64,000 bases of DNA from Candidatus Multivorans sp. (lineage in GTDB: Bacteria; Acidobacteriota; Thermoanaerobaculia; Multivoradales; Multivoraceae): the NCBI GenBank assembly GCA_965224025.1, contig OZ245033.1, forward strand, positions 192,001 through 256,000, given 5' to 3'. The number at the start of each line of letters is the position of its first letter. Position 1 is the stretch's first letter. The notes beneath the pieces were generated by a model, which was not told the DNA's origin, did no database searches, and saw only the letters and a list, made by a program, of their open reading frames with translations. Below, in pieces: positions 43,007 through 54,918 of the stretch. The position numbers were made by a program, and so were the translations under genes.

Positions 43007-45078
43007 GGCCGCGGCTCGAGCCAGCGCGCGAGCCATCCCAGCACCTCCTCGTGCCACTGAATGCTGTTCGCCGGGCTGAGCACCCAGTGGTTCTCATCCG
43101 GGAAGTAGAGCAACCGGGCCGGCACCCCTCGTCGCTTGAGCGCCGTGAAGGCCGCAAGCCCCTGGGTTTCGGGGACGCGGAAGTCGAGCGCGCCGTGAAT
43201 CACCAGCATCGGGGTCTGCCAGCGATCGATCAGGAGCGCCGGATTGTGACTCTCGAAGCCGTCCGGGTTCTCGAAGTAGCTGCCCCGGTGATCCCACTCG
43301 ACGAACCACAACTCCTCGGTCGTGTAGTACATCGAGCGCAGATCGAAGACTCCGTCGTGGTTGACCAGGCAGCGGAACCGATCCGGCCAGGCGCCCGCCA
43401 TCCAGTTCACCATGTAGCCACCGTAGGAGGCGCCCAGCGCGCACACCCGATCGCCGTCGAGGAACGAGTAGCGATCGAGCGCGGCGGCCAGTCCCTTCTG
43501 CAGGTCCTCCAGCGGCTTGCCGCCCCAATCGCCCCCGATCGAGTCGGTGAAGTCCTGGCCGTAACCCACCGAACCATGGAAGTCGATCATCACCGCGGCG
43601 TAGCCGGCGCCGGCGTAGGCTTGAGGGTTCCACCGGTAGTGGAACGAGTTGCCGAACGAGCCCTGCGGTCCGCCGTGGATCAGGAAGGCGACCGGGTAGC
43701 GGCGGTCCGGGTCGAAGTCGACCGGTCGCACGACGTAGCCGTGCACCGTCTCGTCGTTCCAGCCGGCGAACGTGAACTGCTCGTAGTCCCCCACCCGCGC
43801 CGCCGCCCGCTGGTCGGCGTTGAAGGCCGTCAGGGCCCGCCGGTCGCCGCCGGAGAGATCGCTGACGAACAGCTCCGACGGACCGGCGAGATCGTTGTGG
43901 AGAGTGACAAGACGGTCCTTCGACACCGCCAGACCCGCTACCGATCCCTCGCCGTGCAGGCGCGTCACCGAGCCGTCCGCCACATCCACCGCGAACAAGC
44001 TCCGCTGCCCGAGGTCCGCCGCGGTGGCGAACAGCGTTTCCCCGTCGGCCGAAAAGGCAAGGCCCGAGACGGAGCGGTCCCAGTCCCCGGTGAGGTCCCG
44101 CTCGTCCTCCAGCCGGGAACCGTCGAGGCGCGCGAGCCGGATCCGGAAACGGTCGGATTCGTAGCCGGGGCGCTCCATGGCCAGCCAGGCCAGCGCGCCG
44201 CCGTCCGGCGACAGCACCGGGTGACTGTCCCAGGCCGGGTTTGCGGCGGTCAGGTTGACGGGCGGCGAACCGCCGTCCGCCGGCGCCAGGTACAGATCGA
44301 AGTTCGTCGACCACGCCTCCGGCGTACCGCCGGTGCGCGAGGCGAAGATCACCGCGTCGCCCCCATGCCCAAAGGCGATCTCCTCCGCGCCGCCGAAGGG
44401 CTTGGGAGGCGCGTCCTGGTCGAGTCCGCGCATCAGATCGACCGGCTCCCCTGACGGCGAGCGGACGTCGTCGAGTTCCAGGACGAAGACGTGCGACCGG
44501 CGGCCGTCCTTCCAGACGTCCCAGTGGCGAACGAAGAGATCGTCGTACGCGACCCCCGACGTCGGCCTCGACGACCGGTCCTCGAGGCGTTCCGCAGTGC
44601 AGTCGAGCGTCTCGCACGAAGCGAAGACGTCCATCGTCAGCGCGATCCGGCGACCGTCGGGCGACACGACCAGGTTGCCGACATCGAGCGGCAGGTCGGT
44701 CACCTGGCGCGGTTCGCCCCCGGCAAGGGGCAGGCGCCAGACCTGGGAACTCCCCGAACGCGTGGACAGGAAGAAGAGGTCTCGGCCGTCCGGCGCCCAG
44801 CGCGGATGAAAGTCCGCCGCCTCGTGCGTGGTCAACCGGCGTGGCGCGCCGCCGTCCACCGGCGCCGACCAGAGATCCGTTCGACCCCGGTTGGCGGCCA
44901 GGTCCGTCGTGCGCACGGCAAGGGCAACGACCGACCCGTCCGGCGCTATCTGAGGGTCCGAAAGCCGCTCCATCGCCAGCATGTCGTGGACCGAGAACGG
45001 GTGCGTCTCCTGCGCTTGCGGAATCGCCCACGGCGGAACGATCAGAGCGGCAAGAGCGACGATCCCGAAACGGCCCAT
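43003..45078 (-). CDS. S9-family peptidase (dipeptidyl-peptidase 5-like)
   Basis: Beta-propeller repeats, IHGGPQ, GASYGG, DFRVP, DENHW. Confidence 0.93.
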   Translation of the reverse strand: MGRFGIVALAALIVPPWAIPQAQETHPFSVHDMLAMERLSDPQIAPDGSVVALAVRTTDLAANRGRTDLWSAPVDGGAPRRLTTHEAADFHPRWAPDGRDLFFLSTRSGSSQVWRLPLAGGEPRQVTDLPLDVGNLVVSPDGRRIALTMDVFASCETLDCTAERLEDRSSRPTSGVAYDDLFVRHWDVWKDGRRSHVFVLELDDVRSPSGEPVDLMRGLDQDAPPKPFGGAEEIAFGHGGDAVIFASRTGGTPEAWSTNFDLYLAPADGGSPPVNLTAANPAWDSHPVLSPDGGALAWLAMERPGYESDRFRIRLARLDGSRLEDERDLTGDWDRSVSGLAFSADGETLFATAADLGQRSLFAVDVADGSVTRLHGEGSVAGLAVSKDRLVTLHNDLAGPSELFVSDLSGGDRRALTAFNADQRAAARVGDYEQFTFAGWNDETVHGYVVRPVDFDPDRRYPVAFLIHGGPQGSFGNSFHYRWNPQAYAGAGYAAVMIDFHGSVGYGQDFTDSIGGDWGGKPLEDLQKGLAAALDRYSFLDGDRVCALGASYGGYMVNWMAGAWPDRFRCLVNHDGVFDLRSMYYTTEELWFVEWDHRGSYFENPDGFESHNPALLIDRWQTPMLVIHGALDFRVPETQGLAAFTALKRRGVPARLLYFPDENHWVLSPANSIQWHEEVLGWLARWLEPRP

Positions 45079-45146
45079 GGCTGCGGCACAGAGTATCGCA
45101 AGGGCCGGGTGGTAGGATGCGGCCTCCAGAAACTCCAGGATCCACG

Positions 45147-46048
<902 letters not shown>

Positions 46049-46049
<1 letters not shown>

Positions 46050-47637: not shown

Positions 47638-48615
47638 ATGTCCCCGTTGCTCGACAATGCGATCCAGTCAATACGCATCGGCGTGGAGGACTACGAGGCC
47701 CACGACCCGGCCCGGGCACTCTCGGCGATACGCAACCTGCACGCCGGTCTGTTGCTCTTGGCGAAGGAAGTCCTCGTACAGGCGGTTCCGAATGCCGATG
47801 AGGACGACCTGATTGGGGCCGAGTACAAGCCGATGCCGGATGACAACGGCGGTGTGACATATGAGAAGCGTTCCGCACGGACTATCGGCCTCGCCGGGAT
47901 TGGAGAGCGTTTCAAGGACTTCAGGATTCCCGTAGATCGGGCAGCTCTTGAGAAGCTCAGCCAGCTCCGGAACGACGTCGAACACCGATACACCGAGAAG
48001 GCACCTGGCGTTCTGCGACAGACTGTCGCGGGCACGTTTCCGCTAGCGGCGCGGATGTTCCGACGTGTCGGCGTCGACCCCGTTGAGAGGCTGGGAGATG
48101 CTTGGAAGACGATGCTTGACGTACATGAAGTCTACGAGCAGGAGCTACGAACGTGCCGCGAGACGTTCGACCGCGTGGAGTGGCGGCATGAGGTCGTGGG
48201 CAGGCACCCGAGAGAATGTCCCAAGTGCCGCTCGGAGCTACTGGAACAGATTGGACCAGAGAACCGGGAACAGGAGTGTGCAGACTCGGCCTGCCGTTTG
48301 TGCGGGGCAAGGGTGAGCGCGGAAACTCTGGTCGAGAGCGCCATCGCAGCCCACTACTCGGCTGCCGAGTTCCTGGACTACAAGCACGGCGGCGACGGCG
48401 TCGTGTTCGACTGTCCCGAGTGCGGGCTTCACACGTATGTCGTGGACTCAGAACCTGAGGACGGAGGTTCAGAATTCGTCGGATGCATGGCGTGCGACCA
48501 CCGAGTACAGGGCCGATGTGCGCGATGTCAAGAGGACTTGACGCCGGGCAACCTCGGAGCGAACCGCTCTGGCTGTTGCGACTACTGCGAGCACATGCTA
48601 TTCAAGGACGACTGA
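47638..48615 (+). CDS. Putative HEPN-like RNase with multiple Zn ribbons
   Basis: Helical N-terminus with RNDVEH (Rx4H); six CxxC pairs in the C-half. Confidence 0.6.
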   Translation: MSPLLDNAIQSIRIGVEDYEAHDPARALSAIRNLHAGLLLLAKEVLVQAVPNADEDDLIGAEYKPMPDDNGGVTYEKRSARTIGLAGIGERFKDFRIPVDRAALEKLSQLRNDVEHRYTEKAPGVLRQTVAGTFPLAARMFRRVGVDPVERLGDAWKTMLDVHEVYEQELRTCRETFDRVEWRHEVVGRHPRECPKCRSELLEQIGPENREQECADSACRLCGARVSAETLVESAIAAHYSAAEFLDYKHGGDGVVFDCPECGLHTYVVDSEPEDGGSEFVGCMACDHRVQGRCARCQEDLTPGNLGANRSGCCDYCEHMLFKDD

Positions 48616-48890
48616 CCGCGAGCTAGCCGGCTGGCCGGAAGCGGCGTCCGCGTCTCGCTCATGGACTTGCAATCGGCAAGCCCATGAGCGACCGAGGCCC
48701 TCTCAGCGGTAGCGTTGCCTCGCTGCGGCGGCCGTCTCATCCTGGATCCTGGGGAGCGCCGGGACCTCGACTCTTTTCCGCTCCCTGTAGTCCCTGACGG
48801 CCTGACGGGGCCGCACCAGGATCCGCTCCAGTACCGAAAAGGGTCGGCACCCCCCTCGTATAGGGGATTATGTCGAATAGTGCCCAAGCG

Positions 48891-49328
48891 TCACGGGATA
48901 CCGGCGGCGTGGAAGAAGAACCGTTCGAGGTTCTCGCGCACGAAGACATCGAGAGCGATTCGTGTGCCTGCCGATCCGGGCTTGTGGAGGTGACAACGCA
49001 TCTCTACCGCGCTCCATCGAGGCGTGACGATCACATCTGACTGCTCCGCCATCAAGAACCGCAGTTGTAGGCCGGTCGACTGGAACGATACGGCAGCAAC
49101 CGACTCTCCGTCTCGTTTTTGCGCGACTCGCAACGTGAGTTCTTCTTTGACGACCTCGTACCGATACTTCTCGCCCCGGCACTCCAAGAGCTTGTTCATG
49201 TCCGCGGTATCGCGCTCGACAAGCTGCCGAACCTCGTTCTCCAAGAGAGAATCCGAGTTGCAAGCCGCACGTCGAAAGACCCATCGCGGAGCTTCTGTGG
49301 CGTTATCTCGTTGGGGTTCTTCGCTCAT
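48891..49328 (-). CDS. Hypothetical passenger protein
   Basis: ATGA-coupled to the upstream ORF; stop lies 1 bp from the left TIR. Confidence 0.6.
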   Translation of the reverse strand: MSEEPQRDNATEAPRWVFRRAACNSDSLLENEVRQLVERDTADMNKLLECRGEKYRYEVVKEELTLRVAQKRDGESVAAVSFQSTGLQLRFLMAEQSDVIVTPRWSAVEMRCHLHKPGSAGTRIALDVFVRENLERFFFHAAGIP

Positions 49329-49639
49329 TGGCACTGCGGCGGCAGTAGTTCTTCGATCTTCCGTTCGATGTCGGCGGCGGCATGGAGGTTCTTCGTGTAC
49401 TGCTCTATGGCGCGGAGTGCTTCGGCGTAGTCCACGTAGCGCGCATCTCGCATCTCGACCGGATAGCCGCCAGTCATTCGGACGTTCTGATCCGCGTCTC
49501 CGATGGCGCTCAGCATTGACGCGGCGGCTTGTGTCAGAGACCGAGCGATCCCCTTCGCCTTGGTGCGGTAGCAGGCTGCTGAATTCTCGGCTTGCCGCCG
49601 CTTCAGCATGAGGTCGCCGAGGCGTTCACTGTCCGACAT
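49325..49639 (-). CDS. Hypothetical helical passenger protein
   Basis: TGGTAAGAT-N7-ATG; divergent from the transposase. Confidence 0.6.
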   Translation of the reverse strand: MSDSERLGDLMLKRRQAENSAACYRTKAKGIARSLTQAAASMLSAIGDADQNVRMTGGYPVEMRDARYVDYAEALRAIEQYTKNLHAAADIERKIEELLPPQCQ

Positions 49640-49656
49640 GGAGGCCATCTTACCAC

Positions 49657-49685
49657 TTGACAGGACGGGCACTATCCTGTAATCT
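49657..49685 (+). promoter_or_regulatory. Transposase promoter (leaderless) containing a TIR sub-motif
   Basis: TTGACA-N17-TAATCT-N7-ATG; spacer holds GGGCACTAT, also present in the TIR. Confidence 0.75.
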
Positions 49686-49692
49686 TCTGGGC

Positions 49693-50682
49693 ATGACGAC
49701 GACACTGCAAGACGCACCCGGTAAGCACTACCGGAAGGGCATGAGCCTGATCGACGCGATCCGCCTGTTCCCCGACGATGCGGCGGCGGAAGCGTGGTTC
49801 ACGTGCATCCGCTGGCCCGAAGGTCCATCGTGCCCGCACTGCGGCTCCGAGAACGTCCAAAGTGGCGCGAAGCACAAGACGATGCCGTACCGCTGCCGGA
49901 CGTGCCGCAAGCGCTTCAGCCTCAAGACTGGCACCGTCATGGAGGCGAGCAACCTCGGCTACCAAGTGTGGGCGATGGCGCTGTACCTGCTCCTGACGGG
50001 TCTCAAGGGCGTATCGAGCATGAAGCTGCACCGTGACTTGGACGTGACGCAGAAGACCGCGTGGCACCTCGCTCACCGTCTCCGCAAGGCGTTTGAGGCC
50101 GAAGGGCCGCGAGTCGTCTTCGAGGGGCCGGTAGAGGTCGATGAGACGTACATCGGCGGTCTGCGGAAGAACATGCACGCGAAGAAGCGGAAGACCCTTG
50201 AAGGCCGCGGCACCGTGGGCAAGACCGCCGTGGTCGGCATCAAGGATCGGGAGACCAAGAAGGTCGCGGCGCGGGTCGTCCGCTCGACTGACGGCGGGAC
50301 GCTTCAAGGTTTCGTGCGCGAGCACGTCGAACCCGGCGCGACGGTGTACAGCGACGATACCGGGGCGTACAGCGGTCTGACCGAGTACGAGCGCGGCACC
50401 GTCCGGCACTCGGTCGGCGAGTACGTGGACGGCAAGATCCACACGAACAGCATCGAGTCGCTTTGGTCGATGCTCAAGCGCGCCCACAAGGGCGTCTACC
50501 ACAAGCTCTCGCCGAAGCACCTACAGCGCTATGTCGATGAATTCGCGGGGCGGCAGAACATTCGGGAGTTCGACACCATCGACCAAATGACGGTCGTATC
50601 AGCGTGGCTGGTCGGCAAGCGACTCCGCTACCGCGAGTTGATCGCCGACAACGGTCTGCCGTCCGGCGCACGTTCGGCATGA
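49693..50682 (+). CDS. IS1595-family transposase
   Basis: CPHC..CRTC zinc ribbon, QKTAW HTH, VEVDETYIGG, YSDD, HTNSIESLWS, YVDEF. Confidence 0.95.
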   Translation: MTTTLQDAPGKHYRKGMSLIDAIRLFPDDAAAEAWFTCIRWPEGPSCPHCGSENVQSGAKHKTMPYRCRTCRKRFSLKTGTVMEASNLGYQVWAMALYLLLTGLKGVSSMKLHRDLDVTQKTAWHLAHRLRKAFEAEGPRVVFEGPVEVDETYIGGLRKNMHAKKRKTLEGRGTVGKTAVVGIKDRETKKVAARVVRSTDGGTLQGFVREHVEPGATVYSDDTGAYSGLTEYERGTVRHSVGEYVDGKIHTNSIESLWSMLKRAHKGVYHKLSPKHLQRYVDEFAGRQNIREFDTIDQMTVVSAWLVGKRLRYRELIADNGLPSGARSA

Positions 50683-50691
50683 CGGCGGACG

Positions 50692-50747
50692 GCCAGCGCG
50701 CCAGCGCGCCAGCGCGCCAGCGCGCCAGCGCGCCAGCGCGCCAGCGC
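50692..50747 (+). repeat. Simple sequence repeat (GCCAGCGC)7
   Basis: Seven perfect 8-bp units counted directly. Confidence 0.95.
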
Positions 50748-50752
50748 CGGAA

Positions 50753-52105
50753 TTGTCCACTGCAACTTCCGAGCCCAACTGGAAGAACCGGACTTTGTTC
50801 CACCGGGACAACCTAGAGGTCTTGCGCGGCATGAACAGTGAGACGGTGGACCTGATCGCCACAGACCCGCCGTTCAACAAAGGGCGGGACTTCCACGCGA
50901 CGCCCGACAGCCTCGCGGCAGGCGCGTCCTTCAAGGACCGCTGGACGTGGGAGAACGACGTCCAACAAGAGTGGGTGGACAAGATCGCCGATGACTGGCC
51001 TGCGATCAAGGAACTGGTCGAGTCAGCCGGGGCGTGCTACGGCGAGGACATGGCGGCATTCCTGGTCTGGATGGGGATTCGGTTACTCGAAATGCGGCGG
51101 GTACTCAAGCCGACCGGGGCGATCTACTTGCACTGCGACCACACGGCGGGCGCGTATCTCAAGATGCTCATGGACGCGATCTTCGGGCGCAGGCAACTCA
51201 AGAACGAGATCGTGTGGCACTTCCGCACATCGTCAGGAGCACCCAAGAAGCACTTCATCAAGAACACGAACACGATCTTCTTCTACGTGAAGTCTAGGAA
51301 CTCCGTGTTCAATCTCCAGAGAGAACCGTGGCCGGAGTCCACACTGAAGAAGTGGCAGCGCGACTCCAAGGGGAGGGTCTACCGAACCAACAACGGCAAG
51401 CGGTACTACATCGACCCTAAGGGCAAGCGGATGGACAACGTGTGGGAGATCACGCTGTCTTCACGATCTCGGGAGCGTGTCGGGTACCCGACGCAGAAAC
51501 CGATAGCGCTCTACGAGCGCATCGTCCAGGCATCGTCCAACGAAGGCGACATCGTTCTTGACCCATTCTGCGGTTGCGCGACTACATGCGTGGTGGCGGA
51601 GAAACTCGGCCGACAGTGGGTTGGGATCGACATTTGGGACAAGGCGCACGAGACGGTTCTGGACCGCCTACGGAAAGAAGAACTGTCGGTAGGGGGTGAC
51701 CAGGGCGACCGGCTCTTCACCGTTGGTGACGTGGCCTACCGGAGAGACGTTCCGGTGCGAACTGACGATGCCCAGGTCGCCGCTCCCAAGATGCGTCGCC
51801 GTAAGTACTTCTTCGAGGACCCGCCAGACGGTTACACGAACCGCGAGCGGAAGCAGTTGCTCGTCGAGACCAACGCCCGCGACGGACTCGTGTACTGTGA
51901 TGGCTGTGACCGCGGATTCGACTCGCCCGAGTACCTGCAACTCGACCACAACACGCCGCGATCAAGTGGCGGCAGCAACAACATCTCGAACCGTCGCCTG
52001 CTCTGCGGCCCGTGCAATCGCCGCAAGTCGAACACACTGACGCTCATCGGACTGCGGAGGAAGAACAAGAAGGACGGATTCATGGCGAATCAGACCGTAA
52101 CCTGA
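50753..52105 (+). CDS. Beta-class N4/N6 DNA methyltransferase fused to a C-terminal HNH endonuclease
   Basis: DPPFN, YPTQKP, DPFCGCATT; CDGC...DHNTPRSSGGSN..N..LLCGPCNRRKS; true start probably ATG 50679 across the repeat. Confidence 0.9.
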   Translation: MSTATSEPNWKNRTLFHRDNLEVLRGMNSETVDLIATDPPFNKGRDFHATPDSLAAGASFKDRWTWENDVQQEWVDKIADDWPAIKELVESAGACYGEDMAAFLVWMGIRLLEMRRVLKPTGAIYLHCDHTAGAYLKMLMDAIFGRRQLKNEIVWHFRTSSGAPKKHFIKNTNTIFFYVKSRNSVFNLQREPWPESTLKKWQRDSKGRVYRTNNGKRYYIDPKGKRMDNVWEITLSSRSRERVGYPTQKPIALYERIVQASSNEGDIVLDPFCGCATTCVVAEKLGRQWVGIDIWDKAHETVLDRLRKEELSVGGDQGDRLFTVGDVAYRRDVPVRTDDAQVAAPKMRRRKYFFEDPPDGYTNRERKQLLVETNARDGLVYCDGCDRGFDSPEYLQLDHNTPRSSGGSNNISNRRLLCGPCNRRKSNTLTLIGLRRKNKKDGFMANQTVT

Positions 52106-52119
52106 TAAGGATGGAGTCC

Positions 52120-53436
52120 TCAATCGCAATGCTCGGCGACCAGATCGTCCCACGCGGCGCACTTGCTCCGGTCATCGTCCGAGCAGTGCCCAAGGCCCTT
52201 CGGGCAGAGGTTCGCTTGGGCGCGGTACAGATCGCACTGAGCCTCCGTAGGCTTGTTGGCCTCGTGAATCGTCTGAAGGCCCTCGACGGAGACAGCGATG
52301 CTCGCCGCCGCGCTCTTGCAACTGGCGTCTTGAAGGTCTTGCAGGTCGCTCGTTGCGCCCCTTACGGCGGCGCAATCAGTACCGGCCAAGAACGACCCGA
52401 CATCGACCCGATCAGCTTCCAACGTGCCTTTGAGGTTCGGGACGAGTGGCCGCCCGTTCTCGCGCTTCTGATGGATCTCCGCTGCGGTCGCGTCCAGTAC
52501 GTGCAGCCTCGAAGACCCGTCGGGGTGCGTGAGACTCGCGGCCCACGCGGCACCGGGATTCCTAGCGATCATCTTCTCCCAGAACGCCGAGACGCACCCC
52601 ACGTCGTAGCCCGCCCGCGCGGCCAAGTAGACCCCCGCATAGTCGGCCTCGACCTCGAACTTCGGCGCGTGGTAGAGCGCCCCGAGGGCGCTGTAGTCCT
52701 GGTAGACGCCAGTCGCGACCGTCACGACGGCTCCCAGCAGAGCGCCGAGGATCTGGTTCTGCTTCACGGCCGCGAGATGCCCGTAGGCATTGTGCGCGAG
52801 TTCGTGGCCGAGCAGGTACGCGAGTTCGTCGTCGGTCTTGATGAAGTCCATCGCGGCGGTCGTGACCGCCACCGACTTCCCGTCCGCGAATGCGTTCACG
52901 GTCGCGTGTTCGAGCAGGCCAGCCGGGTAGTTGCAGTGCCGAGTGCTCGCCATGTAGAGCGTGGCTTCGCCTCCGTCTCGAAGAACGGTCAGCCTGTAGT
53001 GAAGCGACTGCGGGCTACGCTTCATCCGTCGCTCGGCTCGTCGTCCAGTGCCGAGATCCTTCCCGTCGCGGGCCACGATCCGGTCGCCCGCTCGCAGGCC
53101 CGCCTTTTCGGCCGGGGATCCTGCAGCTACGTGGGTCACGGTCACGTACTCGCTCGGGCCGTACTTCGCCGTCCATGCACTGCGATAGGGCTGCGCGGCT
53201 GTCGCGAGGTCGGCGAACCAGAAACCCGACATCAACCGCGTCTTCGTGCATCGGCCCGAGTTGGCGCTTGTGAGTCGGAACCAGACGCTCTGGAGCCTCT
53301 CGAACTGCTCCATGTGCTTCTTCGCCGCTTCCGCGACCGTGGCGTTGTAGGCGGTCGGGTTGACGGTTGGTGCCGACGTGGTGGTCGATACGCAGCCGAG
53401 CGCGGTCAACGCCAGTGCGGCGGCGAGTCTCTTCAT
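52120..53436 (-). CDS. Lipoprotein: PDZ + M48 zinc metalloprotease
   Basis: Lipobox ALGC, GSPAEKAGLRAGDRI, VNAFA, HELAH, EVEADY, THP; RBS GGAGG. Confidence 0.88.
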   Translation of the reverse strand: MKRLAAALALTALGCVSTTTSAPTVNPTAYNATVAEAAKKHMEQFERLQSVWFRLTSANSGRCTKTRLMSGFWFADLATAAQPYRSAWTAKYGPSEYVTVTHVAAGSPAEKAGLRAGDRIVARDGKDLGTGRRAERRMKRSPQSLHYRLTVLRDGGEATLYMASTRHCNYPAGLLEHATVNAFADGKSVAVTTAAMDFIKTDDELAYLLGHELAHNAYGHLAAVKQNQILGALLGAVVTVATGVYQDYSALGALYHAPKFEVEADYAGVYLAARAGYDVGCVSAFWEKMIARNPGAAWAASLTHPDGSSRLHVLDATAAEIHQKRENGRPLVPNLKGTLEADRVDVGSFLAGTDCAAVRGATSDLQDLQDASCKSAAASIAVSVEGLQTIHEANKPTEAQCDLYRAQANLCPKGLGHCSDDDRSKCAAWDDLVAEHCD

Positions 53437-53662
53437 GGGGGCCTCCTCCAGTTGAGGCACCAGCCCCTGGATTGGCGCCGGGCCGTTGCAACCGCCATGC
53501 AGCGAGCACGGACAAGGCTCCCGCCTATTCGCCCGGCTTCGGGAGCTACCCGCAGCCTCAGAACAGGCTGTTGTATTCAGCGGATAACCCGACTCAGGTC
53601 CCGCTGCTGACGATTGCAAGCCGCTACTGTAGCAGCACCAGTTCTAGGAGAACGGAGGCAAC

Positions 53663-53851
53663 GTGAGCAAGAAGAAGCGGAAGATCGAACTGGTCAAGGC
53701 GGACTACCAGCCGTCACGGGCCGAACAGCGCGACGAAGTAGCGCCGCCAGCGGACTTGATGGAGTTGCCGCTGATGGAACGGCTTGCCGAAGGTGCGCGG
53801 CGACTGCTTCAGCCCGTTGAGATCACCTACACCAAGCGCCCGCGCCGGTGA
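53663..53851 (+). CDS. Small basic passenger protein at the right TIR
   Basis: RBS GGAGG, 62 aa, stop 3 bp from the TIR. Confidence 0.6.
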   Translation: MSKKKRKIELVKADYQPSRAEQRDEVAPPADLMELPLMERLAEGARRLLQPVEITYTKRPRR

Positions 53852-53881
53852 GCGGCTTGGGCACTATTCGACATAATCCCC

Positions 53882-54918
53882 TTTCGGATGGTGCGGGCGA
53901 CGGCCTTCATGGGTTCGACCTTGGAGCGGTTCACGTTGGTGCACCACTGATGGAGCATTCGCAGCACGACGTTGATCTGCTTGCGGTTGAGAATTTCGCG
54001 GAGTTGCTCCCGATAGAGCCAGGCGCGTGCGGTGCGTCGGCTGGCGACCCTCTTGACGAAGCGGTCGAGGTCGGCCCGTTGGGCCGGCGTCAGGGAGTCG
54101 CGGTTCTTGAGCAGCGTCCAGCGCAGGCCCTTCAGCGACGGATCGAGGCGCTGTTCGAGGCGCCGGGTCTCGTCCACCGCCTTCGAGGCCAGGGCCATGA
54201 CGTGGAACTTGTCGAGGGTCACCTCGGCGTTGGGGAGATTCTCGGCGACGCCCTTGAGGAAGGCGGCCGACATGTCGATGGACGCCCGGCTGATCGCGGC
54301 GGGATCGCCGCCGCGCCTTTGCAGATCGTCGGCGAACTCCTCGATCGTGCCGGACTTGCGTCCCTCGGCGAGGAACACCACGCGCCGGCGCTCGCTGTCG
54401 GCGACCGCGGTCACGTAGTCGTGCCCCTTGGCGCGGGAAGTCTCGTCAATGGCCACGTGGCGCAGTTCGGAGAGGTCGTCCCGGTCGACCGCCAGCTCGA
54501 CGTAGCGCTTGCAGATCGCGTGCACCCGATGCCACGACACCCCGGTCAACCGGGCCACCGCAGCGAAGGTCATGTCTCGGCACATGGCCAGAATCAAGGC
54601 TTCGAACAGCAGCGTGAAGCCGGACAATCTGCCCGACCAGGGCGGAGTCACCAACGCCACCCGCTGGTCGGGGAGTCGCACACGGGGCACTCGCGCCTCG
54701 AGCAGGCACTCGTGCTGGAAGAAGTTGAGGTGCCGATAGCGCTTGATCTGCGTGTCGTGCACCGGATGAGAACCGCCGTCCCCCTCGTGGGCGAATCGGC
54801 TGCCCTTCCTGAAGTCGATCCGTATCGTCAACCGACGCTCCCTCTCACAGAAGTCCACGCCGTCAACGAACCACGGCGCCGACACGCCCAGCGCTCTCGC
54901 GAACAATTCCCTCTGCAT
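53882..54918 (-). pseudogene. ISL3 transposase, C-terminally truncated
   Basis: YRHLNFFQ, IDETS, IDMS, DKFHV; C-terminal catalytic region missing. Confidence 0.88.

Follow-up and report, generated by a model that had tools for sequence, protein, structure and literature searches.

Most of what is known about phase-variable methylases concerns chromosomal genes of host-adapted pathogens. Type IIG enzymes usually combine a PD-(D/E)XK nuclease at the N-terminus with a gamma-class methylase, and poly-G tracts serve as their switches. One phase-variable single-chain type IIG enzyme, Cj0031 of Campylobacter jejuni, is described in the available text of PMC4889913. Repeat tracts are also found in mod genes, 17.4% of which carry them according to the available text of PMC5909438. 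Transporter insertion sequences (tIS) and mobile insertion cassettes were described by Siguier et al. 2009 (cited in PMC11891212 and PMC3129680). In the accessible parts of the two citing sources, methylases are already listed as IS passengers (IS220, IS1380 family), and the IS1595 family is said to have tIS members (ISNha5).

The locus described here resembles each of these systems in part. As in phase-variable mod genes, a beta-class (PF01555) methylase is preceded by a 5' coding repeat whose unit is not a multiple of three, which would give ON and OFF states by frame. Unlike the mod systems, the gene has no res partner, encodes a fused C-terminal HNH domain and lies inside IS1595 inverted repeats; transposition is not mentioned in the available text of PMC5909438 and PMC7383803 ("transpos" occurs 0 times). 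As in Cj0031, to judge from the text available on it, restriction and modification domains share one polypeptide, with a repeat tract as the switch, here a proposed one. In contrast to type IIG enzymes, the methylase is of the beta class, the HNH domain is C-terminal, the repeats are octamers and the gene is transposon-borne. The element is tIS-like in that passenger genes lie inside the inverted repeats of an IS, and one relative, L035, fits the mobile insertion cassette. It differs from the tIS covered by those sources in its passenger, a fused methylase-HNH gene for which a hypermutable switch and a translational coupling to the transposase stop are proposed. Our literature searches found no description of switch, methylase-HNH protein and transposon in combination, in agreement with a preliminary description of this DNA, which knew of none.

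Anatomy of the element

The window, which is the whole 64-kb stretch of DNA that was analysed, contains a perfect 27-bp inverted-repeat pair that bounds 5019 bp (48863-53881) and encloses the transposase and the methylase-HNH gene (Table 1). Exactly two perfect copies of this repeat are present in the window, with 0 expected (100 shuffles). Its arms stretch to 47 nt at 83% identity, and it begins with GG and is similar to the ends found in relatives, GG(G)(A)ATTATA. The transposase matches Pfam DDE_Tnp_IS1595 (3e-40), with an N-terminal Zn_ribbon_IS1595 (7.5e-08), and the full profile (2-215 of 215) of the IS1595 family in NCBIfam (NF033547, 3.2e-53). A promoter-like site can be discerned by eye 5' of the transposase (TTGACA at 49657-49662, a 17-nt spacer and TAATCT at 49680-49685, 7 nt before the ATG); it is weak, with 3/6 matches in the -10 hexamer, and is not listed by the promoter scan.

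Table 1 Features of the element and of its right flank in the window
Feature	Coordinates	Strand	Evidence
Left terminal inverted repeat, GGGGATTATGTCGAATAGTGCCCAAGC	48863..48889	+	Found exactly twice in the window without mismatch, as an inverted pair
Passenger ORF geneB, 145 aa, function not assigned	48891..49328	-	ORF; its ATG overlaps the geneA stop
Passenger ORF geneA, about 104-107 aa, function not assigned	49325..49648	-	ORF
IS1595-family transposase, 329 aa from ATG 49693, stop TGA 50680-50682	49693..50682	+	Pfam, NCBIfam
Leader start: overlapping ATG and 4 leader codons before the array	50679..50691	+	Sequence, frame script
(GCCAGCGC)x7, proposed slippage switch, OFF at 7 units	50692..50747	+	TRF, frame script
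Fused beta-class N6-adenine-type methylase and C-terminal HNH, 450 aa from TTG 50753	50753..52105	+	Pfam, PADLOC, PDB matches, fold
Passenger ORF, PDZ and M48 metalloprotease, 499 aa, within the inverted repeats	52120..53619	-	Pfam
Right terminal inverted repeat, perfect copy of the left	53855..53881	-	Window repeat search
Flank: ISL3 transposase gene truncated by the right end of the element, outside the element	53882..54918	-	Pfam DDE_Tnp_ISL3 4.7e-48

The element, probably an IS1595-family tIS, has cargo beyond the transposase and the methylase. GeneB has no match in Pfam, PADLOC or NCBIfam and is not found beside the methylase-HNH gene in the 80 homologous loci described below. GeneA gives only a sub-threshold Pfam match (ptaRNA1_toxin, 16.7 bits, cut-off 27) and is missing from the same 80 loci, in which the M48-PDZ gene is likewise not linked to the element. 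On the right, the tip of the repeat adjoins the broken ISL3 gene precisely at the end of its Pfam match (residue 346; profile position 195 of 240), and a search of the window did not find the absent C-terminal part. No 8-bp target duplication is present at the ends of the element, which are flanked by CTCGTATA and TTTCGGAT. Of the hallmarks of an IS1595 tIS, the zinc-ribbon transposase and the terminal inverted repeats are thus observed and the target duplication is not. As this duplication is missing and the cargo is unseen in the 80 loci, the window element may be rearranged or immobile. The window contains no tRNA gene, and therefore there is no sign of integration at a tRNA site.

The octamer array and its reading frames

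The array of GCCAGCGC is perfect (7.0 copies; TRF, 100% matches, score 112) and is the sole strong short repeat across the 64-kb window, where strong means a period of at most 10, at least 4 copies and at least 95% matches. Upstream of it, the ATG at 50679-50681 overlaps the TGA of the transposase ORF (49657..50682) as ATGA. As in contingency loci, a unit that is not a multiple of three, here of 8 nt, stands between a start codon and the methylase frame. Read from this ATG, the 7-unit allele runs for 45 codons and then meets the stop at 50816. In simulation, alleles with 0, 3, 6, 9 and 12 units are stop-free from ATG 50679 to 52105, and those with 1, 2, 4, 5, 7, 8, 10, 11 and 13 units exhibit no open read-through to 52105.

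The methylase-HNH frame itself is open upstream through the array as far as a stop at 50639 (open from 50642), with no ATG, GTG or TTG in that frame between this stop and the TTG at 50753. The 20 nt 5' of this TTG are CCAGCGCGCCAGCGCCGGAA; they offer just GGAA, immediately adjacent to the TTG, and by eye this makes no convincing Shine-Dalgarno sequence. The preliminary description had reported the 7-unit array and the overlap of the ATG with the transposase stop, which the sequence, TRF and the frame script bear out. It had also stated that 7 units are out of frame whereas 6 or 9 read stop-free into the methylase, as the simulated alleles confirm, and that TTG 50753 has no clear Shine-Dalgarno sequence, with which our inspection agrees.

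The methylase-HNH protein

The frame downstream of the array matches Pfam N6_N4_Mtase (1.8e-47) and HNH (2e-09). It is intact, with 450 stop-free codons after the array and a GC3 of 0.80. Methylase and nuclease domains lie in one chain, as in single-chain (type IIC-like) enzymes, and both exhibit intact catalytic motifs; DPPF, DPFxGCATT and CxxC...DH...N...CxxCN are invariant in 19 sequences, and the HNH core resembles Cas9-type HNH.

Several comparisons place the methylase nearest to type II beta-class N6-adenine enzymes and not to type III Mod. In PADLOC, the match to MTase_II (8.8e-57) exceeds the best match to MTase_III (8.9e-36), and among PDB sequences M.MboIIA (1.7e-23) precedes EcoP15I Mod (7.8e-09). 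The closest by sequence are M.MboIIA, M.RsrI and M.BceJIV (1.7e-23 to 4.6e-19), which share the DPPF motif. The predicted fold (pLDDT 75, pTM 0.67) matched methylases only in Foldseek, with E values of 6.5e-19 to 8.7e-18 and target-normalised TM scores of 0.69-0.79 for the same three enzymes. These are, however, stand-alone methylases, either from two-gene restriction-modification (R-M) systems or orphans, and have neither HNH domain nor repeat nor transposon. For the HNH part and the linker (pLDDT <50 at 314-325 and 340-355), the predicted fold was uninformative as to the domain arrangement. In Pfam and PADLOC, nothing res-like turned up within the element or next to it, and the minimal mobile unit, seen in L035, comprises the methylase-HNH gene only, without the adjacent Res helicase-nuclease subunit with which Mod acts in type III systems. 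The preliminary description had cited type III mod genes as the precedent; the best profile and structure matches are of type II, and res is lacking. The conservation of the HNH domain suggests a possible role in restriction, defence or addiction rather than in a phasevarion.

The closest proteins are 92% identical (P0001) and, over part of the length, 98% identical (P0016); in species genomes, identity reaches only 61%, for the best relative. Matching records from annotated plasmids (at least 5000) and phages (852) hold the methylase part only. None of these records covers at least 80% of the query, and they provide no named full-length relative.

Repeat tracts in related loci

The comparison set comprises 80 homologous loci (981,657 bp), kept from 551 relatives. 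A hypermutable tract is present at the same 5' position in 13 of the 80, a share similar to that given above for mod genes. Octamers with five different unit sequences are found in six loci (L022, L023, L053, L061, L076 and L079), a 13-mer repeated 30 times in an archaeon (L010) and poly-C/G in six loci. Perfect strong repeats are rare, with 15 in the whole set, of which 8 lie at the 5' end of the gene against 0.55 expected (P=1.7e-8); these 8 correspond to seven octamer rows in six loci and a C15 in L033. Counted by independent loci, the figure is 6/13 (P=3e-6). Homopolymers of at least 7 are similarly placed, with 12 of 148 inside the 150-nt 5' intervals against 1.8 expected (P=3.5e-7). The presence of tracts goes with that of the transposase (5/7 loci versus 12/73, Fisher P=0.004). 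On a tree of the family, from which 10 of 81 sequences were dropped because their matches were fragmented (L004, L019, L028, L034, L048, L051, L059, L064, L075 and L078), tracts are patchy and occur in at least three places, a distribution compatible with multiple origins as well as with module exchange.

In every octamer or 13-mer locus, the array is preceded by an ATG and a short leader, and in the six octamer copies measured a conserved block, PNWxNRT, follows 15-38 nt 3' of the array. Among the 73 loci without such an array, 58 exhibit an in-frame ATG at most 25 codons from this block and 12 have only GTG or TTG starts. With the window included, an ATG between array and block is missing from all eight octamer or 13-mer copies, five of which have no in-frame start whatever. 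In L061, an in-frame TTG stands upstream of the array. The usual ATG of the family is thus replaced in these copies.

This loss bears on the possibility that the enzyme is translated constitutively from TTG 50753 and that the array is a repeat between genes or in an upstream ORF whose influence is limited to modulating expression, through a shift in the end of the overlapping upstream ORF, with no ON/OFF switch in the window copy. The TTG is in frame and 3' of the array; it precedes the conserved NRT by 12 codons, which agrees with the range of N-termini in the family. The 12 array-less loci with only GTG or TTG candidates and the intact ORF with its GC3 also fit this explanation. We nevertheless consider it unlikely. 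By eye, the TTG lacks a Shine-Dalgarno-like sequence at a usable distance, and a chance ATG, GTG or TTG in the seven codons between array and block is not improbable (an estimated 3 or so in 64 per codon). Moreover, five of the seven related array-bearing loci have an open frame without any in-frame start, so that translation there can only begin at the upstream ATG and pass through the array.

Differences in tract length

Close copies differ in the length of their tracts. L031 carries G8 and is in frame with GTG 5968, whereas L072 carries G9 and is out of frame; the tract is the sole internal indel in 183 columns at about 98% identity. These two loci also recall the DNA-recognition-domain alleles of mod genes, being 97-98% identical yet unalignable over about 250 nt in mid-gene. 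L020 (C7) and L068 (C8), two copies in one genome that are about 93% identical over the stretch compared, likewise differ by the tract as the sole internal indel, in 132 columns. The 13 tract loci comprise three ON (L010, L031 and L065), nine OFF and one without a call, and three of 13 is close to the one-third ON expected of a free-running switch. No difference in octamer count was found anywhere in the relatives; the GACAGTCC copies of L053 and L079, in one genome, both have 5.6 units, and in L022 the assembly breaks inside the array (a run of N). A protein search for ON-phase relatives of other unit numbers, with the repeat-encoded N-terminus as query (window 50642-52102, residues 1-60), gave 201 candidates, none of which scored.

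Mobility of the unit in relatives

Homologues of the IS1595 transposase (34-57% identity) are present in 17 of the 80 loci and adjacent to the gene in 15. Inverted repeats surround transposase and gene in L044 (29/29), L020 (25/26) and L078 (21/23). Units of the L022 or L044 type measure 2.6 kb. An IS consisting of the transposase alone was considered and rejected: no inverted repeat longer than 7-10 nt joins the transposase flanks in the eight loci tested, and inverted repeats around transposase and gene are therefore preferred. L022 exhibits the exact gene order of the window, including a stop/ATG overlap (TAATG), and in L035 inverted repeats and a target duplication surround the methylase-HNH gene alone, without a transposase.

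According to the available text of PMC8101967, 8-bp duplications are usual for IS1595 elements, and the related Merlin elements have GG at their ends. Among 11 elements inspected, the window copy included, six have perfect 8-bp target duplications (L022, L028, L035, L044, L046 and L076), all of them AT-rich (TAAAACAG, AAAACAAT, CTTTGTTG, TAATAGAC, CAAAAATT and CTTACAAA), and L022 and L076 carry octamer arrays as well. Such a duplication is missing in the window, L020, L023, L053 and L078. The target duplications demonstrate that the same unit has transposed in relatives. Of the spread by transposition proposed in the preliminary description, this part stands, with duplication-flanked units in six relatives, while the window copy itself has no target duplication.

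The coincidence of 8-nt units with 8-bp duplications raises the question of whether IS1595 transposition itself gave rise to the octamer period, through 8-bp staggered cuts that leave a duplicated target as an excision footprint with later expansion, rather than selection for a switch. The unit length equals that of the target duplication of the family, the period is 8 in six of the seven non-homopolymer arrays, and arrays go together with the transposase. We judge this origin quite improbable, given that the array units are GC-rich in contrast to the six AT-rich duplications, that the arrays lie inside the elements between leader ATG and gene rather than at the tips, and that the position of the octamers is taken in other loci by poly-C/G or a 13-mer. 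By eye, the leaders 5' of the arrays also look homologous, and common ancestry with turnover of the units can therefore account for the constant period. The period might still be traceable to the 8-bp staggered cut of the transposase. This explanation concerns the origin of the array and is compatible with a switch function.

Proposed mechanism

The preliminary description had envisaged a repeat-switched, transposase-coupled methylase-nuclease that is OFF as assembled, and had named the comparison of homologous elements as a check. In that comparison, tracts recur at the same position, the canonical ATG is lost, and lengths differ by one base between close copies; together with the duplication-bounded units, these observations support the proposal. 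We therefore regard it as probable that the window element is an IS1595 tIS whose cargo includes a single-chain methylase-HNH gene with a slipped-strand switch.

We infer the following sequence of events. The transposase and the methylase-HNH gene would be co-transcribed, and ribosomes finishing the transposase at TGA 50680-82 would restart at the overlapping ATG 50679 and read through (GCCAGCGC)n. With 3n units, a slightly N-extended methylase-HNH enzyme would be made (ON); with 7 units, as assembled, translation would end at the stop at 50816 (OFF). Replication slippage in the host would add or remove 8-nt units and so flip the state reversibly in a minority of cells. In ON cells the target would be methylated, probably at adenine as the DPPF motif suggests, and the HNH domain would probably cut unmodified DNA, with restriction, defence or addiction as the outcome. 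Carriage in the OFF state may spare the cost or self-damage of the enzyme, for example on reaching a naive genome.

It is very improbable that the window copy is instead a decaying, frameshifted relic in a rearranged, immobile element, in which OFF simply means pseudogene. The missing target duplication, the unusual cargo, the adjoining broken ISL3 gene and the OFF allele could be read in this way. Against this, coding-type GC3 and an open frame persist after the array, no catalytic motif is missing, the transposase match spans the whole profile, the inverted repeats are identical at 27/27 bases, and the array is perfect where an inert repeat should gather interruptions. That misassembly produced the count of 7 units and that the real allele is in frame is hardly credible: such arrays are hard for assemblers, as the run of N in L022 illustrates, but this one is just 56 nt, spannable by single reads, and free of N, and the majority of relatives are OFF too.

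Biological significance

In this family, a single unit of about 1.5-5 kb combines the proposed switch and the enzyme with a means of movement, and the methylase-HNH unit is found in many phyla, including an archaeon. A wider reading, which we offer only tentatively, is that of a pan-phylum family of mobile contingency loci, in which IS1595 transposons and transposase-less cassettes carry a self-contained methylase-HNH R-M enzyme with its own ON/OFF switch, in at least three forms (octamer, 13-mer and homopolymer), and have spread through symbiont communities, among bacteria as well as archaea. Should the switch operate as proposed, horizontal transfer would bring stochastic epigenetic or restriction heterogeneity to a genome in a single step. 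Arrival in the OFF state would let a potentially self-toxic R-M enzyme invade an unmethylated genome without self-restriction, and a later switch to ON would make the element defensive or addictive. With its swapped central recognition regions and three kinds of tract, the family offers a natural allele series for the origin and persistence of contingency loci outside pathogens.

Frame of the octamer array

The repeat and frame layout given in the preliminary description is a real feature of the window sequence. The ATG at 50679 does overlap the stop of the upstream ORF, whose TGA lies at 50680-50682. With seven units this ATG is out of frame, as had been stated, and a stop at 50816 is reached after 45 codons; read-through had been claimed for 6 or 9 units, and simulated alleles of 0, 3, 6, 9 and 12 units are open to 52105. 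The proposed transposase upstream and MTase-HNH downstream are borne out by profile matches, the former as an IS1595-family enzyme in Pfam and NCBIfam, the latter in Pfam. Under the criteria applied to the relatives, the array is the sole strong short repeat of the 64-kb window. A 9-nt repeat near the 3' end of an AMIN-domain ORF would not shift the frame, because its unit is a multiple of three.

Features of the window and of homologous loci (L handles)
Feature	Position	Strand	Remarks
AMIN-domain ORF	44841..46049
9-nt repeat	46007-46041		CGACGACGG x3.9, perfect (TRF)
Gene directly left of element	47638-48612	+	candidate anti-phage family PDC-S64, PADLOC 3.2e-36
Window element, 5019 bp			two small minus-strand genes, transposase, leader and array, methylase-HNH, PDZ-M48 protease gene
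Inverted-repeat pair, 27 bp, perfect	48863-48889 and 53881-53855		0 expected
Two small ORFs inside element	48891-49648	-	stop/ATG overlap, translationally coupled, reading towards left inverted repeat
IS1595-family transposase ORF			upstream of array; Pfam DDE_Tnp_IS1595 3e-40 and zinc ribbon; NCBIfam 3.2e-53, whole profile
Octamer array	50692-50747		GCCAGCGC x7.0, perfect (TRF)
Methylase-HNH ORF, 450 aa	TTG 50753..52105		N6_N4_Mtase 1.8e-47 fused to HNH 2e-09 (Pfam)
PDZ and M48 metalloprotease gene	52120-53619	-	inside inverted repeats
ISL3-family transposase gene	53827-54918	-	cut at codon ~346 by element's right end
TonB-dependent-receptor-like ORF, 451 aa	55349-56704	+	covers only parts of barrel profiles
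13-mer array	L010:5617-6012		ACAAGGCACAGCA x30, within methylase-HNH 5' end
Complex tandem repeat	L003:5054-5928		periods 24, 71, 135, 294 nt
Upstream poly-C	L033:5815-5829; L027:5485-5495; L042:5947-5955		C15; C11; C9
Tandem methylase-HNH duplicates	L029:6000-9070; L001:4992-7290; L032:4970-7320
Cassette, 1546 bp	L035:340-1885		duplication CTTTGTTG

Repeat tracts in homologous loci

The relatives are 80 loci from a genome scan, spread over many bacterial phyla and archaea; the best of those listed is 61% identical, and several records bear names of sponge-associated taxa. TRF detected 15 strong short repeats in their 981,657 bp, 8 of which sit at the methylase-HNH 5' end, where 0.55 were expected (P=1.7e-8); per independent locus the count is 6/13 (P=3e-6). 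These eight comprise a C15 in L033 and seven rows of octamers from six loci (L022, with two rows divided by an assembly gap, L023, L053, L061, L076 and L079), with the units GAAGAGCA, GCCCAACC, GACAGTCC, GCAAGCGA and ACCCGTCC. L010, from a Nitrososphaerales archaeon MAG, exhibits a 13-mer array in frame within a 563-aa ORF from ATG 5614, possibly a repeat-based contingency locus in an archaeon. Every octamer or 13-mer locus has an ATG and a short leader upstream of the array, and the distance from array to the conserved PNWxNRT block is 15-38 nt in the six octamer copies measured. By eye, one leader motif before the array is common to L023, L053 and L076, and another to the window and L061. 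The homologous look of these leaders suggests that the arrays descend by position, with their unit sequence turning over. In a tree built from the conserved portions, tract-bearing copies have a patchy distribution (10/81 sequences dropped). In L003, a large complex repeat lies directly 5' of the methylase-HNH, within a frame open for 656 codons.

Inspection of loci without a start brought another kind of tract to light: in L020, L068, L031, L072, L063 and L065 a run of poly-C or poly-G separates an upstream start from the conserved block. Homopolymers of at least 7 in 150-nt 5' windows amounted to 12/148, versus 1.8 expected (P=3.5e-7). Two pairs document tract length change directly: G8 versus G9 is the sole internal indel between L031 and L072 (183 columns, 98% identical), as is C7 versus C8 between L020 and L068, two copies in one genome (132 columns, 93% identical). 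The G8 of L031 is in frame with GTG 5968, whereas the G9 of L072 is out of frame. The comparison of homologous elements envisaged in the preliminary description thus places tracts at the same 5' position in 13/80 loci: three have the upstream start in frame through the tract (ON; L010, L031, L065), nine are out of frame (OFF), and the thirteenth, L022, is not phased. L033, L027 and L042 also have long poly-C stretches, separated from the gene downstream by 80-180 nt that include stops; these stretches could act as switches of promoter spacing or be leaders that have decayed.

Switching model and alternatives

We consider it fairly probable that the window has a single-chain methylase-nuclease, carried by a transposon, whose translation is switched by slipped-strand events. 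Slippage would change the octamer unit number and thereby switch translation of the methylase-HNH frame, which would be coupled to termination of transposase translation; the seven-unit allele, as assembled, would be OFF.

The main rival, initiation at TTG 50753 regardless of the array, appears rather unlikely. No start codon precedes this TTG in the open frame, which extends back through the array to 50642. Among the 73 loci without an octamer or 13-mer array, 58 exhibit an in-frame ATG at most 25 codons from the PNWxNRT block, most commonly at codon -8, 12 have GTG or TTG only, and three have no start. Between array and block, no ATG is found in any of the eight array-bearing copies (window included), so that in these copies leader ATG and array have taken the place of the family's usual start; five of the eight have no in-frame start whatever. 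Two further rivals, each very unlikely, are that the window copy is a decaying relic and that its unit number was miscounted. It also seems improbable that the 8-nt period arose from transposition footprints, as target duplications are AT-rich whereas the units of the arrays are GC-rich and lie inside the elements.

The preliminary description knew of no such arrangement, and likewise no account of an IS1595 element bearing a methylase-HNH gene with a repeat switch was found in the literature searched (subscription journals outside coverage). Transposons are unmentioned in the available portions of two phasevarion surveys.

The methylase-HNH family

This architecture forms a very large family (at least 8000 candidates scored, 8000/8000 passing), with relatives typically of about 430-465 aa. 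The nearest solved relatives in sequence and fold are the type II beta-class N6-adenine methylases M.MboIIA, M.BceJIV and M.RsrI. Type III Mod was rejected as an identity for the window system, which lacks a res gene and sides with type II enzymes, Mod proteins being far more distant in sequence and fold. It resembles the phase-variable single-chain type IIG enzymes described in the available text of PMC4889913.

Across 19 aligned family members, DPPF, DPFxGCATT and the HNH core CxxC...DH...N...CxxCN do not vary, and this core aligns with Cas9-type HNH domains. Among the matches listed from annotated plasmid and phage collections, no record covered the full-length fusion at 80% or more. Several copies or loci per genome are common in the genome scan, many genomes having two loci, and tandem duplicates were observed in L029, L001 and L032. 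Between near-identical alleles (e.g. L031/L072, L007/L016/L017), alignment is lost over about 250 nt mid-gene, which we take, from the domain order of beta-class methylases, to be a putative swapped target-recognition region. The likeness of their 5' and 3' parts beside this unlike centre suggests exchange of recognition domains.

Mobile elements carrying the gene

Transposase homologues (34-57% identity) occur in 17/80 loci and are gene-adjacent in 15, where they lie upstream in the same orientation as the gene or downstream and convergent with it. Tracts are associated with the transposase (5/7 loci versus 12/73, P=0.004). Inverted repeats beginning GG(G)(A)ATTATA enclose transposase and methylase-HNH together (L044, 29/29; L020, 25/26; L078, 21/23), and none was found enclosing the transposase alone. 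Perfect 8-bp target duplications, usual for IS1595 elements according to the available text of PMC8101967, flank 6/11 elements, window counted (L044, L046, L035, L028, L076, L022). L022 matches the window layout exactly: inverted repeat, transposase, stop/ATG overlap, octamer array, gene, inverted repeat. The window element resembles transporter IS, described in the available parts of PMC11891212 and PMC3129680 as IS elements with passenger genes, methylases included.

None of the extra cargo of the window element, including PDZ-M48, lies beside the element elsewhere in the 80 loci. The two small ORFs gave no family match above threshold (ptaRNA1_toxin, weak, 16.7 bits) and are possibly a toxin-antitoxin-like or accessory pair. 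The element's right tip meets the ISL3 gene exactly at the end of its Pfam match. As no target duplication surrounds the element and the remainder of the ISL3 gene is absent from the window, the flanks were presumably rearranged after insertion. The PDC-S64 match beside the element points to a defence-island-like setting. The TonB-dependent-receptor-like ORF is probably a fragment, and its region holds two IS elements.

L035 exhibits near-perfect inverted repeats (43/45 positions shown) with only the methylase-HNH between them; judged from its sequence, it is a mobile cassette of this family that lacks a transposase. Since this unit consists of the methylase-HNH gene alone, the protein would work without a neighbour and could be moved in trans.
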